Below are positions 5,195 to 26,300 of a stretch of 46,635 nt of DNA, piece by piece. Origin of the DNA: Octopus sinensis (Eukaryota); the NCBI RefSeq assembly GCF_006345805.1, contig NW_021834599.1, positions 1 through 46,635 of the forward strand, read 5' to 3'. The position numbers and the translations under genes were made by a program. The notes below the pieces were generated by a model, which searched no databases, was not told the origin of the DNA, and saw only the letters and a list, made by a program, of their open reading frames with translations. How positions within the stretch are numbered: the first letter of the stretch is position 1; the number at the start of each line of letters is the position of its first letter.

Positions 5195-5394
5195 TCACTT
5201 TGCGTCTAATGACAGACATTCCATCGCAGCGAAACATTCAGCTTCTTCAAGAGCTGCACGTAATGTTGCGTGTGTCCGTGTTTCTGGGTCGCAATTTTTG
5301 AACCATTCGTAAAGAATCTGGTGGCCTTGTTTTACAGTGACATTAGACTCATCATCAATTTTCAGTTTAGTTGTATCAACTTCTAAAACAATAA
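5195..5394 (-). CDS. Terminal exon: death domain, C-terminal part
   Basis: Acceptor tcttttgcag. Translation [66 protein letters not shown] shows the death-domain pattern Q..LxxW...TxxxLxxAL. Confidence 0.85.
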
Positions 5395-8300
5395 CTGCAA
5401 AAGACACAACAATAAGAAATGAATGCAACAACATTGACAATAACATAAAACGGTGTGTACTGTAGGTTGTTATGAATATAACAAACAAACTTTATCAATA
5501 GAGAAGTAAAAAAAGAAATAGCTAAGAAACATGAAAAATATAAGACATTGTTTTCTATTGACAAAAATAACAAAGAGTTTGAATTAAACGAGATTTTTAA
5601 AGAAAATTAATTGAAAATTATACTTGAGAAAATATATGGTAAACGAGGGCAGGACAACTTTTGTGAAGGCAAAAGTATATCAGAACCTCAAGAATTAACA
5701 TTGACCTCCAACAGTGAAAGCATATGATCCATCCATTTCCTCTGCTCAATATTCTTGAAAGGGCTGTGGGGAAAGAGTCCTCAGGCACCTCCTCCATAGG
5801 GTCCTATCAGAAGCATCCATCATTAGACATTCTGCTTGTATTCTATGATGTGAAGAACTAAGACTATGGATATCATCCAACCATTTCTTTCTTGGCCTCC
5901 CCCTCGGTACCCTGTTCCATTGGTTTGACTTTGAGAACCTGTCCTGTAATTCATTCCTGCAACACCCTGATCACATGTCCGAGGTACCACAGATGTGGAG
6001 GAGATGTGGTTCAACCTGGAGAGACTCCCAGATCTCTGAACTGTAAATCCTATTGAGTAACATTACTCCAAAGACCCTTTAGAGGAATCCCATATACCTG
6101 TCTTATTCTGGTAGATTTCAGACCTGGTATTCAAAGGGTCATGAAAGTACTGTCCCTCTGTGCCATCTACTACCTTGCAAAGTTCCCAAGAGGACACTGG
6201 AAATCGAATGATCAGTGATTGTCCAACAGTCGATAATTCTAAGTCAAACTCAATCCCATTTCAAACTTCTCCAATGAACTCCAGGTTCGATCAATTCTAC
6301 AGAGCCTATTCAGTTATTATTATGTCAGTCTGAATGAGAGATGCCCCCTGCAGTTCGGCTTGACTTGTGAATGTTCATTTTCTGGTAAATTCCCTTAAAG
6401 GAATTCTCTGTTTTCGCCTGAGGAGAATGATAGGATTTCGCTGTGTCACCTTTATTAAATCTCTTTTTATTGAAGCATTTACAGACATATGTCATGTGGT
6501 AAAGTCATTGCAAAATGGCAAAATAAATTGGAATTATCAGCTTCCAACACAATAACCCAATAAATAATCTGTTTGAAGAAAGATGCTTTGTTTTAGATGT
6601 TAACTTTGGTACTTGTCCTTCATTACAATAACCTAACAGTGAACCTAAAGAAAATGTGAAACAAATTCACTCACCTGTTTACCCTTAAACAATATATTTT
6701 AGTTCCTTCTTCCAAAAGATAATATTAAACGCCATTTGTGTTTTCTAGTTTATCCATTATTACCAACCATGCTAACCTCAGTGGATATTTTATGAAATAT
6801 CAGGAATATCGTAAATAAAATTGTCATACAGGTAACCTATCAATTGGAAATGAGGAATGTAACTTGTTCTCATTCATTCTGACAAATAAAATAGATCAGG
6901 TGAAAGTAAAATATATAGAAATCAAATATACTCACCCACTTGCCACCAATCACGTCCTAACCTCTTAGCCACTCTCAGAAGATCCCTCTCCTTCAGAACT
7001 GGACTCCCTGAAATAAATATTTCCAAGTTTTATAATTGATTGTAAAACTTATTTATCTCTATAAATATTCTGTAGTTTATTGTTGTGGGACATTGTTATC
7101 ATCAGTGGTTGGCTGGTGACACTAGGGTTTTGCTCAGTATTTTTATACTTTCCATTGTGGGACCATGTAATAGCTCAATATTTAGGCCCGCAACAAAATA
7201 GACTAACTTTCCGAAACCTTGTTTCTCTTTAACAGAGACATCCTACATAATCTAACAATGTTGCAATTATTTCATTCAATTATCATTTCATAGTTCTCTC
7301 TCTCCTTTCATATATCTGTACCAAATCTATGACATGTGACTGTCCTCTGAACTCTACACTTCACTAAGCACCATTCTCCTCATCTTCTGCTAAAGTCCAA
7401 TATCATCCAATGTGGTCTCCAAAGATCTCGTCAGAATTGCATGACACACCACTTCAAGTAAAATAAACGTAATACCTGTTCTCTTTGCTGTTGGAAACTC
7501 TGAATTTATCATCCCACATCCCAGTTCACCTGGTCATTATCTGTGCAGGGAATATTTTAAGACTCCTTAATACAGGTGAGCAATGATCAGTTCTCCCAAA
7601 GATGAAACAAAAAGTGATATCAGGTGTCCTAAACACTGCACACTTGTACAAAACCCCATTAACTACATAAACCTGGACATCACACATTATTGCAGTGAAG
7701 ACATCTGAAATGGTACAAAGGACTGATACTCAAAAATATATAAGAAAGACGGGAATTCAAAGTGAGAGCTCCAATCTTTTATTTTCCAGAATGTTTGGCA
7801 TATTTGTTTTCTTTTAACCATCTTCGTTCTGTGACTTGATCTCAATGCCTTTACTCTTATTGCAAAATTAGTAGTGTACCATCGTCGTAATAGTTTTTTC
7901 AAGTTTCCTTTAAACTTCATCAGGGTTTCTCCTGCTATTGACCTTCACTTGTTTCTGCTGACCTTTCAGAAATGACGGGCTTCATTACTCATTGCATTGA
8001 ACCACATTTTCACCAGGTTCCTCAGTCTACCCGTTAATCCAGAACTATTTGCATATCCTTTTATTGTGTTTGTTACTATGTTATGTAATCCATTAATGTC
8101 TTCTCCAGTGTTTTCCTTTGAGCCATTTCTTATCAATCTCTGATTTAAGTAACATCTCCATAACAATCACAAACCAAATGACTGATTTTGTAGAAACTAC
8201 CAGCAAGTCCCATTTCAAATGATACCAGTCTATCGAGAAAGTTTTCCTCATGAACTGCATATTGAAATTTTTATAGCAGCTCCTCATCAGATCCTTAATC

Positions 8301-11300
8301 TTTTCTCATATATAAAACAGGTCACTGCTTCCATCCACCAATTTGTTTGCTAGAGAACCATAAACAGATCAAATCATACAACATTCAATCCCTTTTTTCT
8401 TCTTCCGTCTTGTACACATCCTAGATTTAAGACACATGTTCCACACAGCCAGGAATGCCAGAGGATTCCAGTCTTCGAGATACTTTTAGTCCCATATTCA
8501 TTATTCTGTAGATTTACAGTTGATCTCTTTGTGAATACAACCTTATAAATCTTGCCATCTATATTCAAGGTTGAAATTAGTCTGAACTAATCAATCGGTA
8601 TTTCTGTTCTCAGTATCTGCAAACAGAATTTCCTTGTAGAAGTTAAAGAGGAGCGTTTAATTTCGTTGACGACATGATCATTTTTCTAGGGCTTTTGGAG
8701 CAAAATTGTGCCCAAGGCCCATTTTAAAGTGGTTGATGTTAGGAAAGGCACATCACCATAGAAAAGCCGGAATGTGTTCCTCATCCAATCAAGGCGGACA
8801 GTATTTGTTGATAAGAACTGACATGGATAGGAATCATCCATCCAATCGATAGGAGCATAGACATCAGATGATAAATGATGAGGGTCATCAGTGTCTATCT
8901 TGGAGAGAGAGGGAGAGAGAGAACGGTTGTCTCAACATCAAACCTAATACTTTTACATGAATAAAGACAATGTTTAGGGGATGTAATGATAAATTTATTA
9001 TCAGTGAAAACAAAAAGGCAGGGTGTTCACATAAGGAACACATTTCATTGTAAATCTGTCACATTATGAGAGATATTTGCCTAAATAGCAACAACAGCAA
9101 TAACCTATCAGTAAACTTAGTAACTACATATTTTAGTCCTCCGTTTCAAAATACAGTATTAATTCTATTGTCTTCTAAATTATCCATTTTCTGAACCATG
9201 CCAACCCCGTTGGAGATTTTTGTGAAATTCCATTGATATCAAATGTCTAATAGAATTATTATACAGCTATATTTCAGATGTAAATTATGAATGGATCTTG
9301 TCCTCAGTCATTCTGATAAACTACAAATGCTCAGGTGAAGGTTAAAAATATAGAAATCCATGAGGTATGTTATTTGCTTCTCACCAACTGGCTGTGATGT
9401 TGTCAAGGCATCCTTCACAGAAGTTGGAGTCTTTGAAATGAATATTTTCAAGTTTTATAGTATAATTTCATTATAGTTATTGATAATCAACACTTTATTA
9501 TTGTGGGAAGGGCATACAGCTGTAAAAACCATTTCGTAGGGATGTGGTTGTGTGCCCATGTAAAAGTTATGTTAACTTTGAGGGTAACAAGGTGTAAAAT
9601 ATCAGATGAGGGTACAAGATAATGCTATGAAACATTCACACAGACAAGTTTAAGAGAGTTAATGAATGATAGCTGATTAATTATCATGTTAATGCGGCGT
9701 TTAAACACTAACTATCAATATAGATTGTATAAAATCTGTGTGAAGAACATGTGACATTTGTTACAATGAATATGGTTGTGTCTCAGCACAGTTGATATTA
9801 TGGTAGTTCCATGAGAAACCATAGAAAAATGTAACCATTTCCAGTACCGAATACTAATGATGAATTCTTTTCTTGGTCAAAACAATGACCAGGTTCCATG
9901 ATCTAATTTCAACATAACAATCAAGTCGGAAGTAAAACCAAAATGTGGAAGACTGAAAACAGTGACTCTCTTACAATTGAAACCATCTCAAAGCCAACAA
10001 TTGTCAGTATAACGATGTCTATATATGGACAGTAAACGTTATTCAAACATCGTAACAAGCGATAATTATATATATATAGTTAGAAAAGAGTGTGAGTTCA
10101 AGTCACACTGGAATCTCATACGTTCATTCCTTTCCATATATTGCATATGTTAGCATCAATGTTTTGTTCAAATGTGAACATATGTTCTCTGTCAATATGA
10201 ATGTTATCAAAATCACTGAATCGGTTTCCACAATCGATATTATTATACTGAGCTAATATGTTATACCAGACAGGAAACTACTGTAACAATCTAAGACAAA
10301 GAATTATGATGAGTTACTGGAAGACATCATCATCATCATCAACATTCAAAGTTGTTTTCCATGCTGAATGGGTTGGAAATCTGACAGGATCTGACAAGCC
10401 AGACAACTGCACCAGGCCCCAGATGGTTTCTTTGGCATGGTTTTCTACGGTAGGATGTTCTTATTGATGCCAACCACCTCACAGAGTGTACGTGGCCCCT
10501 TGTGTAACGCACAAGTACTGGAAATTTAGCCAAAAGCATGTAAGACAAAGACCCCACAGCCGGAGAGGGGGTATTGCAAATTCTCTCCCCGCATCCTGAT
10601 TCTTTTGTCATCACATTCCCTTCTCACCTCCTGAAAATGTCATCAGCTTCAGTGAAGCAAAACATCATAGAGTAGTGAGGACCGTCTCATTATATAGAAT
10701 GCACACAACTTGATTACTACTTGTGCTATAATTAAATGCTCCCAGAACACTTTAGGAAGTGGTGGTGTTGGAAACTAGGAAAGATGACACCACAAGTTGA
10801 AAGTAACGTTTGATATTGTTGGAAATTGATCATTTCTAATGCTTGTGCGACAATAAAATATACCCAGGACCCTTTATAAAATGGTGGGGTTAGAAAGGGT
10901 CTACCCCCTTAGAAAAGCTGCAATGTTTAAGTGAGATGTTTTCCTCAACAAATGACGGTTGGCAGTAATTTCAGATACAACTGACTTGGACAGTGATGAC
11001 CCACCTAGTGTATGGGAGCATGGAGAGCAGATGAGAAAAGATGAGGATGATATCATTTATTGTATTGAAACTTTTAACCAGCATCTTCTTGAAAAGACGG
11101 AGAGAAAGAGCAATGAGTGAGAGAGAGAGAATGAATGAGTACAATGAGATGACAAACAGGGCGAATATTCTCCTTAACGGGGGAGAACCGTTTCAGGGTT
11201 TATATTTAATTTTTGTATCTTTCTTTCTGCGAGTGATGAGTAACTGATGTTTGCATAAAGTACATTTATTGGATATTCGTGTTGTTGTAGAAGAACAGAA

Positions 11301-14300
11301 TTTCTTATAGCTAAGCATTCAATGAAATCTAGCAGTGGAACCTGTTCTCGGTCATTATTAGATATCAATATAGATTGTATATAATCTGAGTAAAGAACAT
11401 ATAACCTTCATCACAATGAATATGATTGTGTCTCAGCACAGCTAATATTATGGTAGTTCCATGAGCAAACGAAGAAAGATATAACCAAGTCCACTGCCAA
11501 ATACTAATGATTAATTCATTTCCTGGTCAAATAACAATGACTAACTTCCATTAAATAATTTGAACGCAACGATGTCAGTGTGCACACAAGGCAGAGTGAA
11601 GAGGCCTGAGAGAAGTGTTAGACATAAGAAGCATCAGATGTGGTGTACAAGAGAGACAACTGCACTGGTATGGTTATGGGTATGGATGAGGAGAATTGTG
11701 GGAAGAAGTGTTACACCCTAACAGTGGAAGGAACCCGTGGAAAGGGGTGACCCAGGAAGACAGGGGATGACGTGGTGAAATGACCTTCGAACGTTGGGCC
11801 TCACAGAGGTAATAGCAAGAGACAGAGACCTCTGTAAATATGACGTGATTAAGAGGACCCGGCAAGTGAAGTGAGATCACAGCTGTAGCCTATACCAGTG
11901 GCGCATAACCAGCCCCTTTTAAAAGTACCCTTGAATCACAGAGTGATAAGTTGCGCTTGAGAAGAATTTCTGAGTCAAGTAAAACCAAAAACCAGAAATC
12001 ACAAATCAAAATCAAATCAAGATCGAAATCAAAATGGAAATTGTAATTACGGCCGATGCCAGTGCCGCCTGGCTGGCACCCGTGCCGGTGGCACATAATA
12101 AGTACCATTCAAACATTGTTTGTTGACAGTGCCGCCTGACTGGTTCCCTGTGCCGTTGGCACATAAAAAGTACCTTCCGAACGTGGTTAATGCCAGCCCC
12201 AACTTCAACTGGCTCCTGTGTCGGTGGCACGTAAAAGGCACCCACCACACTCTCGGAGTGGTTGGCGTTAGGAATGGCATACATATGTGGAAACCTTGCC
12301 AGATCACATTGCAGCCTGACGCAGCCTACTGCCTTGCCAGTGAAATCGTCTGACCCATGCCACCATAAGAAACGGATGTTAAATGATGATGGTGATGATG
12401 ATGATGATGATGCGTTCTGTGACCAAATGACAAAATTAACTCTATTGTGTCTTCTAATTTGAACATTATTACCAACAGCATTAACCTCAATGGGTATTTC
12501 ATAAACTCACAGTAAATCGATATTTTAATTCAATATTATACAGATAATTGTTCAATTTGGAAAATAGGAATGGAAGCTGTTTCAGTTATTCTTTCAAGCA
12601 CAATATACTCGGGGAAGAAAACCTTACAGAAATCAATTGGGAACTATTATTTTATACTCACCAATTGCCTGAGATGCAGCCCCTAATCCTGACATGTAGC
12701 TCTTTTTTACACACCTGTCTTCAGACTTTGGAGCCCCTGAAATAAATATTTCCAAGCTTTACATTTGATATTAAAATGTCTGTATCTTTATTTTTATTAA
12801 TCTCTGTTGTTATAGTGAGTCATTCAATTGGTGACCTTACTGGCCAAATGTTGACCATTATGGTTTTGGTCAATATTTCTGTACTTTCTACAGCGGTCCC
12901 ATGTAATAGCCCAATGTTTCCACAATAAAACAGACTAACATTCCTAAATCCACCCTCTCCCTCTCTCTCTCTCTCTCTAGAAACACATTAAATATTCTAA
13001 CAATGTACCAATTATCTCATTTAATTAACACTTGATAAGAGTTTTCTCTTAGCTTTGTCTTTCTTTTCTTATAACTCTGCCAAATCTATGGCATGGCACT
13101 GTCCTCTCATCTCTCGAATTCACTAATCAACATTCCTCTCTAATTAAGTAAAACTGAGGTCATAAAGACTGTCCTTTATGTACATACCCTCCACCCCGCA
13201 CACAATCTGTCCCCTAAAAATCATCTCCACAAGCCAAATTCCAAACACCCTTCCCCACCATGATCCCTAACAAGATATAAAATGTAAGGTGAGGGTACAC
13301 GATGTTCCTATGACAAAATATGTTAACATTTCAGACATACAAATGTAAGAGAGTTAATGAATTATAGCTTATTAATTATCATGATAATTGGGTATATATG
13401 TGATACAATGGCACAGTGCCTGACGGTGCAATACTAGATATCAATATAGATTGTATATAATCTGAGTAAAGATCATATAACCTTCATTACAATGAATATG
13501 ATTGTGTCTCAGCACAGCTAATATTATGGTAGTTCCATGAGCAAACGAAGAAAGATATAACCAAGTCCACTGCCAAATACTAATGATTAATTCATTTCCT
13601 GGTCAAATAACAATGACTATCTTTCATTAAATAATTTGAACGCAACAATCAAGACCAAAGGGTGAAACACTCAGAAAACTGTGCCTCTTTTAGCAATAAT
13701 ATCATCTAAAATCTAACAAGTGTGAGAAAAAGAATGACTATATGGATGGTAAATGTTGTTCAAACAATGTAATAAGTGTATATTATATATAGTTACAAAC
13801 AGGGATTTGTGAGATCAAGTCACACAGTGAACTCATATTTTATTCCTATCTTTATAGTTTATGTCAACACCGATATTTTGTTTAAATGTAAACAGATGTT
13901 CACCGTTCAATACTAAATTTAATATTTAATCAACGTTAATGATCATTATACTTATAATCTTAGAGATTTGATTTTTAATTTCTTTAATTTATAACAAAGT
14001 TATTCTAACCTGAGACATTCAGGGTACGTACCTAAACAACATATCATGACAGACATCTGGCTACATAACAATAACAACAACAATAACCTATGAGAAAACT
14101 TTGGAAAGACCTTAGTAGCAAAAGAAACAAAAACTTTCTCGTTACCTCACCTGTTTACAAATAAACAACAAAATGTTCTAGTTCTCTGTCCTAAAAGACA
14201 TCATTAACTCTATTATGTCTTCTTATTTAACCATTTTACCAACCACGTTAACCTTGATTTTATGAAATTTCAGTGGAATATTTAATAGAATCCTTTTTAC

Positions 14301-17300
14301 AGCTAATGCGGAAACTAGGGATTGACGAGCGATTATAAGAGTTGAAGAGGCCCTGTAGTAAGGTGAGGATCGGCAATGAGTATAGTGAAGAAGAATTCTG
14401 GATAGAAGTAGGAGTTCACTAGGGATCATTCCTGAACCCCTCATTTTCATCATAGTCCACCAGGCAATAACAGAAATGAAAAATTAAAAGCAATTCAAGA
14501 TCGAAATCAAAATGCAAATTGGAGTTGTGACCGATGCCAGTGCCGCCTGACTGGCACCTGTTCCTGTGTCACGTTATAAGTACCATAGAAGCATAGGTCC
14601 TTGTCACTGCCGCCTGACTAGTTCCCTGTGCCGCTGGCACGTAAAAAGCACCATCCGAATGTGGTCGATGCCAGCCCCCACCCCGACTGGCTCCTGTGTC
14701 GGTGGCACGTAAAAAGCACCCACCACACTCTCGGAGTGGTTGGCATTAGGAATGGCATACATATGTGGAAACCTTGCCAGATCACATTGCAGCCTGGCGC
14801 AGCCTACTGCCTTGCCAGTGAAATCGTCCGACCCATGCCACGATAAGAAATGGATGTTAAATGATGATGATGATGAGTTCTCTGACCAAATGACAAAATT
14901 AACTCTATTGTGTCTTCTAATTTGAACATTATTACCAACAGCATTAACCTCAATGGGTGTTTCATAAACTCTCAGTAAATCGATATCTCTAATTCAATTA
15001 TTATACAGATAATTGTTCAATTGGAAAATAGGAAAGGAAGCTGTTTTCAGTTATTCTTTCGAGCACAATATACTCGGGGGAAGAAAACCTTACAGAAATC
15101 AATTGGGAACTATTATTTTATACTCACCTATTGCCTGAGATGCAGCCCCTAATTCCTGACATGTAGCCTCTGTTTGTACACACCTGTCCTCACACTTTGG
15201 AGCCCCTGAAATAAATATTTCCAAGTTTTACATTTAATAATAAACTTTCTTTATCTTTATTTTTATTAAACTCTATCTTGTTATTGTGAGACATTCAATT
15301 CCTGTCGTTACTGGTCAAATGTTGACCATTATGGTTTTGGTCAATATTTCTGTACTTTCTACAGTGGTCCCATGTAATAGCCCAATATGTCCAAAATAAA
15401 ACAGACTAACATTCCTATATCCACCCTCTCTCTCTCTCTCTCTCTCTAAGAACACATTAAATATTCTAACAATGTACCAATTATCTCATTTAATTAACAC
15501 TTGATAAGAGTTTTCTCTTAGCTTTGTCTTTCTTTTCTTATAACTGTGCCAAATCTATGGCATGGCACAGTCCTCTCATCTCTAGAATTCACTAATCAAC
15601 ATTCCTCTCTAATTAAGTAAAACTGAGGTCATAAAGACATGTCCTTTATGTGCATACCATCCACCCCGCATACAATCTGTCCCCTAAAAATCATCTCCAC
15701 AAGCCAAATTCCATACACCCTTCCCCAACATGATCCCTAACAAGATATAAAATGTAAGGTGAGGGTACAGGATGTTCCTATGACAAAATAAGTTTACATT
15801 TCATACATAAATATGTAAGAGAGTTAATGAATTATAGCTTATTAATTATCATGATAATTGGGTATATATGTGATACAATGGCACTGTGCTTGACGGTGCA
15901 ATACTAGATATCAATATAGATTGTATATAATCTGAGTAAAGAACATATAACCTTCATTACTATGAATATGATTGTGTCTCAGCACAGCTAATATTATGGT
16001 AGTTCCATGAGCAAACGAAGAAAGATATAACCAAGTCCACTGCCAAATACTAATGATTAATTCATTTCCTGGTCAAATAAGAATGACTATCATTCATTAA
16101 ATAATTTGAACGCAACGATGTCAGTGTGCACACAAGGCAGAGTGAAGAGGCCTGAGAGAAGTGTTAGACATAAGAAGCATCAGATGTGGTGTACAAGAGA
16201 GACAACTGCACTGGTATTGTCATGTGTATGGATGAGGAGAGCTGTGGGAAGAAGTGTTACACCCTAACAGTGGAACGAACCCGTGGAAAGGAGTGACCCA
16301 GGAAGACAGGGCATGACGTGGTGAAACGACCTTCGAATGTTGGGCCTCACAGAGGTAATGGCAAGAGACAGAGACCTCTGTAAATATGATGTGATTAAGA
16401 GGACTCGGCAAGTGAAGTGAGATCACAGCTGTAGCATATACCAGTGGCGCATAACCAGCCCCTTTTAAAAGTACCCTTGAATCACAGAGTGATAAGTTGC
16501 GCTTGAGAAGAATTTCTGAGTCAAGTAAAACCAAAAACCAGAAATCACAAATCAAAATCAAATCAAGATCGAAATCAAAATGCAAATTGTAATTATGGCT
16601 GATGCCAGTGCCGCCTGGCTGGCACCCGTGCCGGTGGCACATAATAAGTACCATTCAAACGTTGTTTGTTGCCAGTGCCGCCCGACAGGTTCCCTGTGCC
16701 GGTGGCACGTAAAAAACACCATCCGAACGTGGTCAATGCCAGTTCCCACTTCAACTGGCTCCCATGCTACTATAAAAACGGACGTTAAACGATGATGATG
16801 AGGAGGAGGATGATAATGATGATGATGATGATGATGATGATGAGTTTCGTGACCAAATGACAATATTAACTCTATTGTGTCTTCTAATTTGAACATTATT
16901 ACCCACAGCATTAACCTCAATGGATATTTCATAAACTCTCAGTAAATCGATATCTCTAATTCAATTTTTATACAGATAATTGTTCAATTGGAAAATAGGA
17001 ATGGAAGCTGTTTTCAGTTATTCTTTCGAGCACAATATACTCGGGGGAAGAAAACCTCCAAAATGTGAGGACAGGTGTACACACCGTCCTCTTTATTTTT
17101 ATTAACCTCTATCTTGTTATTGTGAGACATTCAATTTCTGTTGTTACTGGTCAAATGTTGACCATTATGGTTTTGGTCAATATTTCTGTACTTTCTACAG
17201 TGGTCCCATGTAATAGTCCAATATGTCCACAATAAAACAGACTAACATTTCTATATCCACCATCTGCCTCTCTCTCTCTCTCTCTCTCTCTCTCTAAAAA

Positions 17301-20300
17301 CACCTTTGGGAACGAACCCGTGGAAAGGAGTGACCCAATTGGGAACTGTTATTTTATACTCACCAATTGCCTGAGATGTATCCCCTAATTCCTGACATGT
17401 AGCCTCTGTTTGTACACACCTGTCCTCACATTTTGGAGCCCCTGAAATAAATATTTCCAAGTTTTACATTTAAAAATAAACTTTCTTCATCTTTATTTTT
17501 ATTAACCTCTATCTTGTTATTGTGAGACATTCAATTTCTGTTGTTACTGGTCAAATGTTGACCATTATGGTTTTGGTCAATATTTCTGTACTTTCTACAG
17601 TGGTCCCATGTAATAGCACAATATGTCCACAATAAAACAGACTAACATTTCTATATCCACCATCTCTCTCTCTCTCTCTCTCTCTCTCTAAAAACACCTT
17701 AAATATTCTAACAATGTTGCAATTATCTCATTTAATTAACACCTTGATGACAGTTTTCTCTTAGCTTTGTCTTTCTTTTCTTATAACTGTGCCAAATCTA
17801 TGGCATGGCACAGTCCTCTCATCTCTAGAATTCACTAATCAACATTCCTCTCTAATTAAGTAAAACTGCGCCCATAAAGACATGTCCTTTACGTGCATAC
17901 CCCCCACCCCGCACACAATCTGTTCCCTAAAAATCATCTCCACAAGCCAAATTCCATACACCCTTCCCCAACATGATCCCTAACAAGGTGTAAAATGTTA
18001 GGTAAGGGTATACGAGGTCCCTATGACAAAATATGTTTATATTTCAGACATACAAATGTAAGAGAGTTAATGAATTATAGCTTATTAATTATCTTGATAA
18101 TTAGGTATATATGTGATACAATGGCACTGTGCTTGACGGTGCAATACTAGATATCAATATAGATTGTATATAATCTGAGTAAAGAACATATAGCCTTCAT
18201 TACTATGAATATGATTGTGTCTCAGCACAGCTAATATTATGGTAGTTCCATGAGCAAACGAAGAAATATATAACCAAGTCCACTGCCAAATACTAATGAT
18301 TAATTCATTTCCCGGTCAAATAACAATGACTATCTTTCATTAAATAATTTGAACGCAACGATGTCAGTGTGCACACAAGGCAGAGTGAAGAGGCCTGAGA
18401 GAAGTGTTACACATAAGAAGGATCAGATGTGGTGTACAAGAGAGACAACTGCACTGGTATGGTCATGGTATGGATGAGGAGAGCTGTGGGAAGAAGTGTT
18501 ACACCCTAACAGTGGAAGGAACGCGTGGAAAGGGGTGACCCAGGAAGACAGGGCATGACGTGGTGAAACGACCTTCGAACGTTGGGCCTCACAGAGGTAA
18601 TGGCAAGAGACAGAGACCTCTGTAAATATGATGTGATTAAGAGGACCCGGCAAGTGAAGTGAGATCACAGCTGTAGCCTATACCAGTGTTGCATAACCAG
18701 CCCTTTTTAAAAGTACCCTTGAATTACAGAGTGATAAGTTGCGCTTGAGAAGAATTTCTGAGTCAAGTAAAACCAAAAACCAGAAATCACAAATCAAAAT
18801 CAAATCAAGATCGAAATCAAAATGGAAATTGTAATTATGGCCGATGCCAGTGCCGCGTGGCTGGCATCTGTGCCGGTGGCACCATAATAAGTACCATTCA
18901 AACATTGTTTGTTGCCAGTGCCGCCCGACTGGTTCCCTGTGCCGGTGGCACGTAAAAAGCACCATCAGAACGTGGTCAATGCCAGCCCCCACCCCGACTG
19001 GCTCCTGTGTCAGTTGCACGTAAAAGGCACCCACCACACTCTCGGAGTGGTTGACGTTAGGAATGGCATACATATGTGGAAACCTTGCCAGATCACATTG
19101 CAGCCTGACGCATCCTACTGCCTTGCCAGTGAAATCGTCCGACCCATGCCACCATAAGAAACGGATGTTAATGATGATGATGATGATGATGATGATGAGT
19201 TCTGTGACCAAATGACAATATTAACTCTATTGTGTCTTCTAATTTGAACATTATTACCAACAGCATTAATCTCAATGGGTATTTCATAAACTCTCAGTAA
19301 ATCGATATCTTTAATTCAATTATTATACAGATAATCGTTCAATTGGAAAATAGGAATGGAAGCTGTTTTCAGTTATTCTTTCGAGCACAATATACTCGGG
19401 GGAAGAAAACCTTACAGAAATCAATTGGGAACTATTATTTTATACTCACCTATTGCCTGAGATGCAGCCCCTAATTCCTGACATGTAGCCTCTGTTTGTA
19501 CACACCTGTCTTCAAACTTTGGAGCCTCTGAAATAAATATTTCCAAGTTTTACATTTAAAATAAATTTTCTTCATCTTTATTTTTTAAACTCTATCTTGT
19601 TATTGTGAGACATTCAATTCCTGTCGTTACTGGTCAAATGTTGACCATTATGGTTTTGGTCAATATTTCTGTACTTTCTACAGTGGTCCCATGTAATAGC
19701 CCAATATGTCCACAATAAAACAGACTAACATTCCTAAATCCACCCTCTCTCTCTCTCTCTCTCTCTAAAAACACATTAAATATTCTAACAATGTACCAAT
19801 TATCTCATTTAATTAACACTTGATAACAGTTTTCTCTTAGCTTTGTCTTTCTCTTCTTATAACTGTGCCAAACCTATGGCATGGCACAGTCCTCTCATCT
19901 CTAGAATTCACTAATCAACATTCCTCTCTAATTAAGTAAAACTGAGTTCATAAAGATGTCCTTTATGTGTATCCCCTCCACCCCGCACACAATCTGTCCC
20001 CTAATAAACATCTGCACAAGCCAAATTCCATACACCCTTCCCCAACATGATCCCTAACAAGATATAAAATGTAAGGTGAGGGTACACGATGTTCCTATGA
20101 CAAAATAAGTTTACATTTCATACATACAAATGTAAGAGAGTTAATGAATTATAGCTTATTAATTATCATGATAATTGGGTATATATGTGATACAATGGCA
20201 CTGTGCTTGACGGTGCAATACTAGATATCAATATAGTTGTAATACTGAGTAAAGAACATATAACCTTCATTACTATGAATATGATTGTGTCTCAGCACAG

Positions 20301-23300
20301 CTAATATTATGGTAGTTCCATGAGCAAACGAAGAAAGATATAACCAAGTCCACTGCCAAATACTAATGATTAATTCATTTCCTGGTCAAATAACAATGAC
20401 TAACTTCCATTAAATAATTTGAACGCAACAATCAAGACCAAAGGGTGAAACACTCAGAAAACTGTGCCTCTTTTAGCAATAATATCATCTAAAATCTAAC
20501 AAGTGTGAGAAAAAGAATGACTATATGGATGGTAAATGTTGTTCAAACAATGTAATAAGTGTATATTATATATAGTTACAAACAAAGATATGTGTATTCA
20601 AGTCATATTCAATTTCTGATCGTATATTTTGTATAAACACCAATAATTTGTTTAAATATAAACATATATTCACGGTTCAATACTAAATTTAACATGTAAT
20701 AAAATTAAGTTCATGATGAATATTCTTATACAGAGTTAACATTTAATTATAATTTTCTAATTTGCAACTTCAAAATGTATTCTAACCAGAGACATTCAGG
20801 GTACACAACCCCAGAAAATACAAAATATTACGACAGACATCTGGCTACATAACAACATCAAGAATAACCTATCAGAAAACTTACGAAAGATCTTAGTAGA
20901 AAAACAAACAACTATTTTATTAATTCACGAGTTTACACCTAAAATAATAAATTATAGTTCCATCTTCCAGAAGACAATATTAACTCTATTGTGGCTTTTA
21001 ATTTATCCATTTTACCAAACATGTTAAACATGACTTTATGAAATTTCAGTAATATTTTTAATACAATTACTTTAGAGCTAACCTTTCAAATGGAAATTAG
21101 AGATGGGATTTGTTCTCCACCATTCTAATACGCAAAATAGCTGAGGTGAATGTAAAATCTATAGAAATTAATTAAGATCTCTTATTTTAAACTCATCAAC
21201 TGTCTCTGCCACAGTCTGCACTCCCTTCTCTTCAAACTTTGGACTCTCTGAAATATGTGTCTCAAGTTTTATATTTATTTATAGCACAAGTTCTTTATTT
21301 ATTTAATAATCTATATTTTATTAATGAGAAACATTCATACCATCAATGGCCAACCGGCGATCATAATTGTTTTGGTCAATATTTTTATACTTTCAACAGT
21401 GGACCCATGTAATAGCCAATATTTAGCTCCAAAACGAACTCTAGTTGATCTTTGTAAATTTCCTCTCTCTGTAAGATATCCTACATAATCTAACAATGCT
21501 GTAATTATATCACTTAATTATCACCTAATAACAGTTAATCTGTAGGGTTTGGGTTCCTTGCTTATATCTATGCCAAATCTATTGCCTTTTCAAAACCCTG
21601 ATCTTCACTAACAACCTGTTTGATTCCAGTGTCAAAAATTTATTCATCAAAGAATAACAACAAACACATGTCACAACCACTTCAAGAAGGAGAAACATAC
21701 ACCTGATCTCTTTGTTAAACATTGTTGCTGATAATCCCTAATTTTAACTTCACAGTTCACCAGAATGTCATCTCATTCAAGATATATTTGAAGGTTTCAT
21801 GATCTGGTTGGAATGTGACACTCAAGTCAGAACCAAAACCTAAATTTGAGAGACGGACAAAACAGTGTCTCTGTTAGCCTTGATATCACCCAAAGACCAA
21901 CACAGCAACATGGAGTTGCGTGTTGAAGTCTCAAACACAGGTGACACATACATTTTACTCCTTTAAAATATTCTACTAAATTTAATACTTTACCAAAGAT
22001 GACACTGATGTCCTTGTAAGTACTGTTGTATTTACTTATCTTCTAACAACTCATAATTAATTATAGTGTTGATGGAGATTTATTGATACTTCAGTTACTC
22101 ACTAATTATCTTGCAGAATCTTCCATTATCTTTACGTTGCAGACTACAACCCTCTTGAAGTGTGACATGTTTCCTACTTGGATAAGGTCAATGTTTGGTG
22201 GATGTAGTGTGAGAGATATACTATTACAGAGAACAGACACTAGGAACACCTTTTATCATAAATCTGCCAGATTATGGCAGACCTCTGTCTACATAACAAC
22301 ATGAAGTATATTATTCTACACAATAAGGGCAATGGGACAAGCAGGACAAACAGACAGATCAGCAGAGATTTTCTTACCATCTCCAGTTCTGCTCGTTACA
22401 GGTTTCCCGCACTTCAGACATCGTTGAAGTGTAACGTTTGAACATCCCTTACATATTACAAGGTGTCCACATGGATGGACTTTTGTTGTGGCCGCTTTAT
22501 TTCTGCACCACAAACATCTGTGGACAAAACAGAAATATCCAATCAATAACATTCATTTATAACAAATATTATATTATTTACATGTTCGGAATAGAGAATA
22601 TTATTATAAGATACATCAGTAACTACCAAGAGTAGAGCAGGAACTCTTCTTTAAACATTTACATACATACAGCATTTTGTGTAGTTAAATGACGCAGAAA
22701 CACACACACACACACACATACATACACACACATGCATACATACATTGATAAATGTTTGTCTTGACCCTGACACATCATAGAAATTTGTTGACACACAGTG
22801 AACTGCATATATTCCAGAAATATATTTCACTTCTAACATCGAACTCATTTCTTCTGAAGAAATATATCTACACAGGTTTCTTTATATACACATACTGTAT
22901 TGTATACATCCCGTCAACACAGATTAGCAGATGAGGTTTCCAGCACTGCAGAGTGGCAGAAATTACCCGAAACTAGTACTGGTCAGCTAGACACATCCCT
23001 AGAAGATGGTAGGGGTTCGCTCCCCTGCTCGCAATTTATCGGATGCAGTTCCGCATTGTTAACCAACTGGAGGAGTTGTTCTCTTGGGGTTCAAAATTCG
23101 CAGTGGAGTCCATTGGAACAGATAGTCACGCTGGCGTGGCCTACGAGTATTACTTATATATATACATATACATATACATATACAGAGAGAGAGAGTGAGA
23201 GAGAGAATTCACGAAAAGAAAAAACAAGACGAAGACAAGTAGTGTAGACAACAAACATATGTATAAGTTTAACGCTCGGGAAGTGAAAAAGTCTTTAAAG

Positions 23301-26300
23301 TTTCGAGCCTACACTCTTCAACAGGAAGGAATACAGAAGGAAACAAGGAGAGAAAATAAAGAATGTGTAGTGGCTAGCGATCTATCATATATGTATATAT
23401 ATATACATATTCAATTCAATTCAATATTTTTTTCAATTCATTTTTTTATTGGCTCAAAAAGCGAAAGCAAGGTTATGTAGGAGGACAGGGAGTTATGTAT
23501 AGAGAGGGTGGTCATACAAAGAGTTCAGACCATTTCTGGTCAATAGAGACTTTGAACCGAGCGGTCGTCGACATCTTCACTATGTCGTCCGGCAGCTTAT
23601 TCCACGGATCCGCAACCCGGACGGAGAAAGCCCCTCTCCTTCGATTGAGATGAAATTGTCGTAGATAGAGCTTTTCGGAATGACCCCGCAGCCGACGCTC
23701 TGGAGCAGGAGTAAAGAACTGCTCTTTCGAGAGGTTACACTTTCTGCTTATGATGTTGTGAGCAAGAATGAGATCACCACGGCGTCGTCGTTTTTCTAGA
23801 GAATAAAGGTCGAGCGTCTTCAGCCTTTCTTCATAAGACAAATGCTTAAGACCAAGAACCATGCGGGTAGCCAGCTTCTGGACTCTTTCGAGATTCTGTA
23901 TGTCTTTGAGGAGATAAGGAGAAGAGGCTTGAATCCCATACTCCAATATGGGTCTCACCCGCGTGACATAGAGTGGTAGGAATATGGCTGCTGTGAGCAT
24001 TCCGAATGACCGTTGAATCAAGAACAGAATTCCGCGTGCTTTGTTGGCAGCATGGACGCACTGGGCCGAAGGCGAAAAGGAGGAATCCACCAAGATACCC
24101 AGGTGCTTTACCTGATCGGTCATCTCCAGCAGCAGACGACCCGGCTCGAAATCAAGTTGAGTTGCAGGAGGAGAGCCAGCAGGCAGATGACCACACTTTG
24201 ACACGTTCAGACACAGGTCCCGTTTGTTTGACCACCTCCGAACTTGGTGGAGGCATCGACGAAGATCCTCTATATCACTGCGAGGAGCAACCAGTTTGAC
24301 ATCGTCGGCAAATAGAAGGGTGTGTTGCGTGAGGTCGTCGGGCAAGTCATTTATGAAGACTAAAAATAATAACGGCCCAAGCACTGAACATTGAGGCACG
24401 CCACTGCTCACACTGGAGACGTCGGACCGCGAACCATTAAATTGGACTTGGAAGGAGCGATCTGAGAGGAAGGCACCAACCCATCGTACAATATCCGGAT
24501 GGAAACTATATGCTTGAAGCTTGACAAGTAATAGGCGGTGGTTAACCGAGTCAAAAGCATTGGCAAAGTCCAATAAAACGATGTCAACAGCATCACCATC
24601 ATCCAGGATACGCGCCACCAATTCTTCCATTACCAGAAAGCTGGTCAAGCATGATCTCTTCAGCACGAAGCCGTGTTGGGAATCAGAGATAGAGGCTGTG
24701 TTTTGGAGGTGGAGCAACATACTTTTCTTAAGGATGGTTTCGACTATCTTGCTGAATATTGAAGTAAGGGAAACCGGTTGGTAGTTAAGTGGGTCTTTGC
24801 GGCACCCTTTCTTGAAAATAGGGCAGATTATCGCTGTTCTCTAGTCCGCAGGTACAACACCCGTCGCTAATGACATATTGAATAGAAGTGTTAAAGGTTG
24901 GCAGATGACCGGAGCCAACGCTTTGATAACCTGTGGGTGTATGCCATCAGGGCCGTGACCCTTGTTGATATCGAGGCCTTAAATAACGCGTTCGACTTCG
25001 TCCCGAGTGATGACCAATCTAGGCATTGGAGGTACCCATCTATCAAATGGAGGGGGTTCACGACCATCATCTTGTTTGAAAATTGTCGAAAAAGCCTCGG
25101 CAAATAACTAACTCTGCTGATAAGGGTCCTCAATCGATACACCTGTTGATTATGTGTCACGATGCTTCCCCTTTATTGATGGCGTCGTATATTTGTTCCT
25201 TAAACGTGACATCTTCTTTTCTACTACATTAAATTTTTCTCCTCTTCTAATTTGGCTGACTACAAAACTATGGAAAATTGCCACTGTCATTTCCTTATCC
25301 AAGAAGGGTATTAAAAAGGTGACCCCTTAATAACTACCAATTATTGTCCAATCATTTTCATTAGCTGCCTCATCAAATTTATGGTGTTCTGTGACAGAGA
25401 GAGATACTTTGAAGAATCTGGAATTCACATAACCTTATTCCATCCTCACAATTTGGATTTTTCCCTAATTCTAGCTGCTGTAACCAACTCACAGAATTTC
25501 TTCAAGACAATCACCTAAATAACATATTGTGGCTTTTGGGTAGATGTTATTTACCTCGACTTCACCAAAGCCTTTAATTCTCTGCCACACAAACGAATTA
25601 TGTTGAAGCTGTCTGATTTTTGGGTGAGGATTAATTTACTTAAATCTCTGATGTCGTTCATTCTTGCTTAACAAGAAGTAGTCACAGTGTAATGATACTA
25701 TAGAATCACACCTGAAGATTGGTAGGATCTGTTTTAGTCCATTGTTGTTTCTGGAAATGTATTAATTTAATTGATGCCAAACTGAAGCAGGTTACTCTAC
25801 GCTACAGATCATTGCTTCAGCCTCATCTGGACATTTTGCAGCAAGGTGCTATCTAAATCAAGCTAGTTGTAGATAGGTGCACCACTATACATTATGGAAG
25901 GTAAACAATTTCCTCCACAACACCCAACTTCAGAAGTCTACTGGTGAACTGGACCTCGGGATTAATGTCAAGAAGGACATTTGACGGATGATTCCCATTC
26001 CTAAAGTCATCAAAAAGATCGAAAGTATCTTAGCATCTCTCTGAAAACGCTTTGTCTTGCACTTTGTCAAGTTGTCTATTTAAAGTTACGTATGGGAAAT
26101 GGTATGTCCAAACTTACGGTATTCACCTCCAATCTGGAACCCCATCCTGTCTAGAATATTACGTACAGCTAGGCAAATACACTCTGTCACTCACCATATC
26201 TTGAATGTATTGTTTCTCTCGGTATCATCTGAGTACATTAAAATTTGGATGTCTAACAGCTGACTCAGTGGAATCCCACAAGAATATCCACCATCTTCCC

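Follow-up and report, generated by a model that had tools for sequence, protein, structure and literature searches.

Mini-exons apparently derived from a death-domain exon carry candidate LC8-binding motifs in a large family of octopus ANK-RING-death-domain genes

The window, by which we mean the whole stretch of DNA analysed, is one entire Octopus sinensis contig (46,635 bases) and carries on its minus strand an octopus ANK-RING-death-domain gene, so called for its ankyrin repeats (ANK), RING and death domain, and named 'MIB2-like' in RefSeq. Eight RefSeq 'MIB2-like' isoforms map here, all on the minus strand, and pass in turn through ankyrin repeats, a linker, the RING, a set of mini-exons and two death-domain exons (Table 1). 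Comparison of the sequences indicates that death-domain exon 1 was duplicated in tandem and that the mini-exons are its diverged copies, and the peptides that they encode are likely to bind the dynein light chain LC8. Only a short part of the ankyrin region maps in the contig and paralogues have more repeats, so that the 5′ end of the gene may be missing. When the last exon was used as query 36 proteins were found, all of them from Octopus, and two protein searches of the O. sinensis genome returned 141 and 131 matches (some of which may be assembly duplicates), with more than 100 to the last death-domain exon. The family comprises >100 octopus loci and is likely to be confined to Octopus, no member from elsewhere having been seen among the named matches (names were checked for 10 clusters of 81 matches in one search); atlas searches gave no usable match by features and template modelling (TM) scores of 0.35 at most by structure.

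Table 1. Features of the ANK-RING-death-domain gene in the window, in order of transcription
Feature	Coordinates	Strand	Remarks
Ankyrin-repeat exon, 210 nt	29771..29980	-	RefSeq model P0005 and others map; Pfam Ank above cut-off
Exon joining ankyrin repeats to RING, 176 nt	27964..28139	-	RefSeq models mapped
RING exon (zf-C3HC4_3), ends in phase 1	22378..22517	-	Pfam 31.6 bits against a cut-off of 27; Foldseek E 0.012, weak
51-nt unit with EEKGVQTV	21197..21247	-	Donor AT, hence either skipped or read on for 26 codons to a stop; joint 19527-22378 skips it
78-nt phase-1/1 mini-exon, EDRCVQTE	19450..19527	-	AG/GT; in 5/8 RefSeq models
78-nt phase-1/1 mini-exon, EDRCVQTE	17364..17441	-	AG/GT intact; in 0/8 RefSeq models; a hairpin is predicted to mask it
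Inverted 28-nt piece of mini-exon	17056..17083	+	Complementary to 17411-17438; sits where one unit was deleted
78-nt phase-1/1 mini-exon, EDRCVQTE	15128..15205	-	AG/GT; in 5/8 RefSeq models
75-nt in-frame mini-exon, EDRCVKKS, motif lost	12662..12736	-	In 5/8 RefSeq models
48-nt unit, motif absent	9385..9432	-	Acceptor AA in place of AG; unused in the window gene
Death-domain exon 1, 72 nt, phase 1/1	6936..7007	-	Helix 1 and start of helix 2; inferred parent of the mini-exons
Last exon, remainder of death domain and stop	5195..5394	-	Pfam Death under cut-off; PIDD death domain E 0.004-0.006

The window holds six mini-exon units, each referred to here by its first base on the minus strand, and when they are judged as cassettes (length a multiple of three, equal phases, AG/GT) four of the six have both splice sites. 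AG/GT is retained in 54 of 55 young copies from the family, and the window and ten paralogous arrays have one to six young copies each. Isoforms of Octopus bimaculoides contain three, four or five diverged units. The EEKG copy is the first after the RING in the window and in all ten mapped paralogous arrays; its donor is AT in 23 of 24 distinct copies and TT in the remaining one, never GT, and it is absent from all 188 fetched proteins. By prediction, the inverted piece of mini-exon pairs with exon 17441 in a long stem that covers the motif codons of that exon (fold z −2.8), and such a hairpin may cause the exon to be skipped. The junction of the inverted piece occurs only once in the O. sinensis genome, and a private allele or an error of assembly might account for it. 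A subfamily represented by P0112, P0129 and P0132 has up to six units of 17 amino acids with CPxC and with VKT replacing VQT, and forms a motif-less, cysteine-rich branch.

RefSeq isoforms X1 to X8 draw only on exons 19527, 15205 and 12736, which occur in all seven non-empty subsets, and never on 17441. Joints at exon edges are present in contigs of three of four presumed-RNA runs (RNA by guess and not on record, for which reason depth was not used); among the 15 joints listed of 154 are RING to 19527 (one run), one mini-exon to another (three runs) and a mini-exon to the first death-domain exon (three runs). Seven fetched protein models end by read-through from a mini-exon and so would lack the death domain, and units without a motif are spliced into P0004, P0018 and P0075.

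A preliminary description of this DNA had proposed an expanding array of phase-1/1 exons between the RING and the death domain, three with EDRCVQTE and one with EEKGVQTV, spaced by 26 amino acids and skippable in any subset without frameshift. Much of its outline holds: the RING exon and death-domain exon 1 flank the array, splice sites and phase are as described at 19527, 17441 and 15205, joining of the 78-nt exons does set the motifs 26 residues apart, and young duplicates are present. Inclusion in mRNA, on which that description had depended, gains support from the joints at the level of the family, as does skipping, to which the RefSeq subsets also speak. The EEKGVQTV copy, however, cannot serve as a cassette, with its AT donor and its omission from the RING-to-19527 joint, and neither can unit 9432, which also has a dead splice site. 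Nor do four motifs come together, as the RefSeq models carry from none to two. The exons do lie within the bounds first drawn (12662..21247), but the 12662 copy has no motif and the repeat extends to 9432-9385 and to death-domain exon 1. The dead donor had been overlooked, as had the origin of the array and how large the family is.

That origin is seen most clearly outside the coding sequence. The introns that flank death-domain exon 1 are about 70–74 % identical to the mini-exon flanks, both upstream and downstream, and a profile hidden Markov model trained on upstream intron alone picked out 248 units across the fetched loci, death-domain exon 1 itself making up 68 of them (3 of the 248 were flank-only matches and were dropped before clustering). 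The encoded peptides point the same way, since in O. bimaculoides P0066 those of a mini-exon and of death-domain exon 1, ESRKLEEKDLLRVA and ESPMFEEKEVQTVS, align gap-free from the exon start. The direction of change, from death-domain exon to mini-exon, follows from the relatives that the death domain has outside the family; an unrooted and poorly resolved intron tree (12 of 39 branches starred) has the two classes intermixed and gives no order of events. Certain 72-nt units have a death-domain-exon-like end and no motif, and look like the products of later re-duplication. If the central glutamine of the motif is numbered 0, V at −1 is found in 23 of 37 unit types and T at +1 in 20 (types are undersampled, as twenty further paralogous stretches were left out), and neither residue is found in any of 28 death-domain exon 1 sequences. 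The conversion would have needed L to V or T at −1 and R, K or D to T at +1, whereas K at −3 would have pre-existed and Q at 0 would already have been present in some death-domain exons. In the most likely reading, an exon for a death-domain helix was exapted as a module of LC8 valency.

The domains on either side of the array were identified in six members of the family. Ankyrin repeats and zf-C3HC4_3 score above the Pfam cut-off, with one RING each, and Pfam Death is under the cut-off in all six (E 0.0008–0.15). The nearest solved death domain is that of PIDD (E 0.004–0.006), and Foldseek returns the death domains of p84, RAIDD, FADD and RIPK1 with a probability of about 1 but E of 0.13–0.5; the three assignments concur, none being strong alone. 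Among named sequences outside the family the nearest are octopod RIPK1-like proteins, with 37 % identity over 87 amino acids to P0184. The RING model is closest to the RINGs of cIAP2, XIAP and IDOL (Foldseek E 0.012, weak), and RINGs like those of IDOL and of the inhibitor of apoptosis proteins (IAPs) are a dimer-activated class. Its zinc ligands are present; P-x-C-R, the RING end that activates the ubiquitin-conjugating enzyme (E2), terminates 14 of 43 distinct family RINGs, and the window locus ends L-x-C-G. Membership of the Mind bomb proteins, which are defined by an N-terminal MIB_HERC2/ZZ/mib-repeat region, was considered and rejected, no N-terminal Mind bomb Pfam family having been found in the six members (up to 634 aa), although ankyrin repeats are followed by a RING as in Mind bomb, with one RING only. 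Members of the family are predicted ubiquitin ligases, probably with a role in innate immunity or cell death.

The mini-exon peptides match what is known of LC8 ligands closely. The consensus given for LC8 is [D/S]-K-x-[T/V/I]-Q-[T/V]-[D/E] (PMC3078936), where −3 is taken by K or R, −4 by a polar residue and +2 by D, E or P (PMC6607443). EDRCVQTE, encoded by three window exons, fits it with D(−4), R(−3), V(−1), Q, T(+1) and E(+2) and without internal proline, and the motif is present in 44 of the 55 young copies. Three full matches occur in the six frames of the window against 0.05 in 100 shuffles, all three being copies of one origin. Other units carry EDKEVQTV, EDKCVQTE, EDKGVQTD, EDKVTQTL and DKETQTQ. 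Verified LC8 sites include EDKGVQCE in gephyrin (PMC12057147) and EDKATQTL in Bmf, with a dissociation constant of 0.75 μM (PMC3078936); EDKGVQTD differs from the former at two of eight positions and EDKVTQTL from the latter at one of eight. In the AlphaFold model residues 180–206 are coil with a predicted local distance difference test score (pLDDT) below 50, the RING and death domain on either side being at about 80, so that the linker is predicted to be disordered, low pLDDT serving here as a proxy. Canonical 89-residue LC8 genes are present in the O. sinensis genome (LC8 loci L031-L040, L020 not being among them), which yields 22 dynein light chain family matches in all, several of them intronless and diverged, and LC8-like genes may therefore have expanded too. 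A reading of the motif as a RHIM was ruled out, as the glycine that the RHIM definition includes after V-Q-x is missing.

Retention of the motif between species is a sign of selection on it. When 10 O. bimaculoides units were set against their best matches among 66 O. sinensis and Octopus vulgaris units, positions −4, −3, −1, 0 and +1 were identical in 41 of 50 comparisons and the others in 48 of 90, and at the wildcard position −2 just 1 comparison in 10 gave identity (p 0.005 by rank, or 0.033 for the anchor by itself), a result weakened by the use of related, hand-cut units with best-match partners. Frameshifted units had been dropped from the set of 66. Among 17 live O. sinensis types, from which frameshifted and splice-dead units are left out, the motif codons have non-synonymous (pN) and synonymous (pS) proportions of 0.41 and 0.76 and the remaining codons 0.51 and 0.51, as pairwise counts among present-day sequences. 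V(−1) uses four different codons and Q two among the live types, and swaps within the motif go toward canonical KETQT. An alignment with V189 and Q190 invariant was not counted as evidence, because its motif-bearing rows had been chosen. Within the O. sinensis genome the rank tests fell short of significance, with p 0.23 for the anchor and 0.10 for the motif, and the 37 pooled types gave 0.13 and 0.047 respectively; all of these p values are rough, since the units are related and partly hand-cut. The preliminary description had made its case depend on VQT being more conserved than its flanks, and this is upheld between species but not within the genome, nor by any excess among young copies.

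How these parts might work together is suggested by the mechanism that we favour, with a probability of about 0.55: two parallel chains are held together by LC8 dimers at their units, the number of units sets both avidity and the distance from RING to death domain, and the death domain directs the ligase to RIPK1/PIDD-like platforms. The mini-exon peptide would bind LC8 as a β-strand, and LC8 would zip two chains together in parallel between the RING and the death domain, with more live motifs giving greater avidity and a stiffer, longer linker and with motif-less copies acting as spacers. Such pairing would bring together both the RINGs, of the IAP/IDOL-like class, and the death domains, and recruitment by the latter to RIPK1/PIDD-like platforms would place the ligase in immunity or cell death. 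Forms that lack the death domain by read-through of a mini-exon donor could still pair via LC8. A more elaborate version, which we offer tentatively and think possible rather than probable, is a combinatorial, LC8-gated family of death-domain ubiquitin ligases (E3s), which octopuses would have built by duplicating the helix-1 exon of the death domain again and again and turning it into an LC8 docking cassette. Combinatorially spliced rows of live, spacer and dead cassettes, a different one at each of >100 loci, would act as a dial of 0–6 LC8 dimers that sets how ligases pair and how far they reach at RIPK1/PIDD-like signalling platforms, with read-through products as LC8-linked dominant negatives.

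Consensus, near-identity to verified sites, predicted disorder and cross-species retention all favour LC8 binding as first suggested, but a good deal weighs against it and against the mechanism built on it. The K/R-x-[VTI]QT pattern is found in 11 of 37 type representatives, an undercount because types were counted by cluster representative and the 78-nt class is represented by a VKT variant, and in 53 of 91 proteins with RING and death domain, leaving 38 of the 91 without it; many live unit types have no motif, a live motif is lacking in two of the 11 genes mapped, and many anchor-bearing peptides fail to bind LC8 (PMC6607443). Ligase activity of the window locus is doubtful in view of its RING end, L-x-C-G and not P-x-C-R. 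The window contig and its paralogues are 96–99 % identical, so that joints and RefSeq isoforms reflect splicing in the family and cannot be tied to the window locus, and an exon with CT as its donor in the assembly is spliced in some RefSeq models. The non-significant tests within the genome belong here also, as do P3 and K4, which lie outside the core motif and are as conserved as V-Q. Young 78-nt copies differ by 0.055 against 0.050–0.060 for their introns, with Gln lost in 9 of the 55 and VQT absent in 11; the tuning of valency by copy number and splicing put forward earlier is not borne out by copies that vary as fast as introns. The pattern is that of an old selected motif with selection relaxed on any single young copy, which a model based on avidity allows and which drift also explains.

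Drift is the core of a neutral explanation, in which a phase-symmetric exon keeps duplicating by unequal crossing-over, its copies are tolerated as spacers and VQT, inherited from one old copy, is decaying. The intron-like young copies, the motif-less types and proteins, family member P0106 with no unit at all and the frequency of dead donors and acceptors (EEKG type 24/24, ARPIF type 3/4) all agree with this, yet it does not account for motif positions that are kept across species around a most variable wildcard, for a valine specified by four codons and a glutamine by two, or for swaps that run toward KETQT, and we regard it as unlikely, though with an appreciable chance of being right. We think it improbable that units were selected simply as spacers, setting the reach from RING to death domain without LC8, or for another partner such as one recognizing the TRAF-type motif, [PSAT]-x-[QE]-E. 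Several unit types do contain words of this kind (TCQE, TVEE, TQEE, ASEE), motif-less units are among those spliced in, and P3, K4 and E6 are also constrained; the words are degenerate, however, shift position among types and are missing from the KxVQTV units of O. bimaculoides, and the pattern conserved is specifically K-x-V-Q-T. There is similarly little to recommend a main role in switching between full-length forms and ones without the death domain, with read-through to a conserved intronic stop producing ANK-RING decoys and the motif secondary. It would suit the seven models that end in this way and the constant place of the donor-less EEKG copy next to the RING, but that copy is in none of the fetched proteins, the read-through models may be annotated unspliced RNA or contig ends, and conservation of the motif would be left unexplained.

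Some further features of the locus and family may be recorded. Isoforms P0008, P0044 and P0047 of one paralogous locus differ by swapped ankyrin segments, which suggests that the ankyrin region, too, has alternative exons that arose by duplication. The same death-domain type occurs in tandem runs at C1:41735454-41762731 (9 matches ~3–3.6 kb apart) and C1:107080291-107100343 of the O. sinensis genome, with both domain parts close together in the runs. It also ends P0120, a 1283-aa protein in which leucine-rich repeats (LRRs) and a seven-helix receptor region were recognized by eye, and is found in the RING-LRR model P0001, so that the death-domain module seems to have been shuffled onto receptors. 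Within the window an intronic segment on the minus strand (23560-25300) appears by eye to be a decayed reverse-transcriptase fragment of a long interspersed nuclear element, and positions 32783-34200 and 43958-46293 are very long simple repeats, (TAGA) of ~354 copies and (ATC) of ~779 copies near the contig end.

The RefSeq name recalls Mind bomb MIB1 and MIB2, in which ankyrin repeats likewise precede a zf-C3HC4_3 RING and from which the name derives, but in the octopus family the N-terminal Mind bomb domains are missing (six members scanned), there is a single RING, the protein ends in a death domain and the loci number >100. We know of no Mind bomb protein with a C-terminal death domain. 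Mammalian MIB2 is reported to ubiquitylate RIPK1 and cFLIP (PMC7815719). Comparable too are the BIR-DD-RING IAPs of oysters, also an expanded molluscan set of RING and death-domain proteins tied to immune challenge (PMC8917759). The same study gives only 10–11 IAP genes for octopuses (PMC8917759). In the octopus family ANK replaces BIR and the death domain follows the RING, and no exon array is seen in the portions consulted of the oyster account. The nearest death domains outside the family, those of octopod RIPK1-like proteins (P0154 and P0184; P0143 in Argonauta) and PIDD, are in proteins without a RING or mini-exon array, with which the family may interact.

If the proposed mechanism is correct, the array offers a short linear motif whose birth from a folded-domain exon can be traced through intermediates that the genome still contains, and a natural series in which to study the effects of LC8 valency and spacing (17 versus 26 aa) on dimerization and activity. 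The origin of the exon and the expansion of the family hold even if LC8 binding fails, and the misleading 'MIB2-like' label has hidden a large octopus family whose members are probably ligases of innate immunity or cell death. No account of the family, of the exon array or of an LC8-regulated RING ligase was found in the literature covered, which takes in little of the octopus genome papers and their supplements, where the expansion may be mentioned.

As clients of LC8 the octopus proteins would resemble ASCIZ/ATMIN, KANK1 L2 and Nup159, which have several QT-type motifs in a disordered linker and in which avidity, heterogeneity and the length of the rod depend on how strong the motifs are and how they are spaced (PMC10046861, PMC12803091, PMC12057147), LC8 dimers joining two chains in parallel in ASCIZ and KANK1 (PMC10046861, PMC12803091). 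Unlike these, the octopus genes appear to carry one motif per skippable exon, in numbers that vary among paralogues and isoforms; the exon derives from that of a folded domain, the host is a RING-death-domain protein and LC8 binding is as yet a prediction. Gephyrin and Bmf, which the octopus units match at six to seven of eight positions, have one known site each in unrelated proteins, so that the likeness would be convergent. Splicing also controls an LC8 site in myosin Va, one spliced form of which abolishes binding (PMC3078936), but there a single site is turned on or off, rather than a count being set over an array of exons. Neither an LC8 client with several sites nor the control of a single LC8 site by splicing is new in itself.

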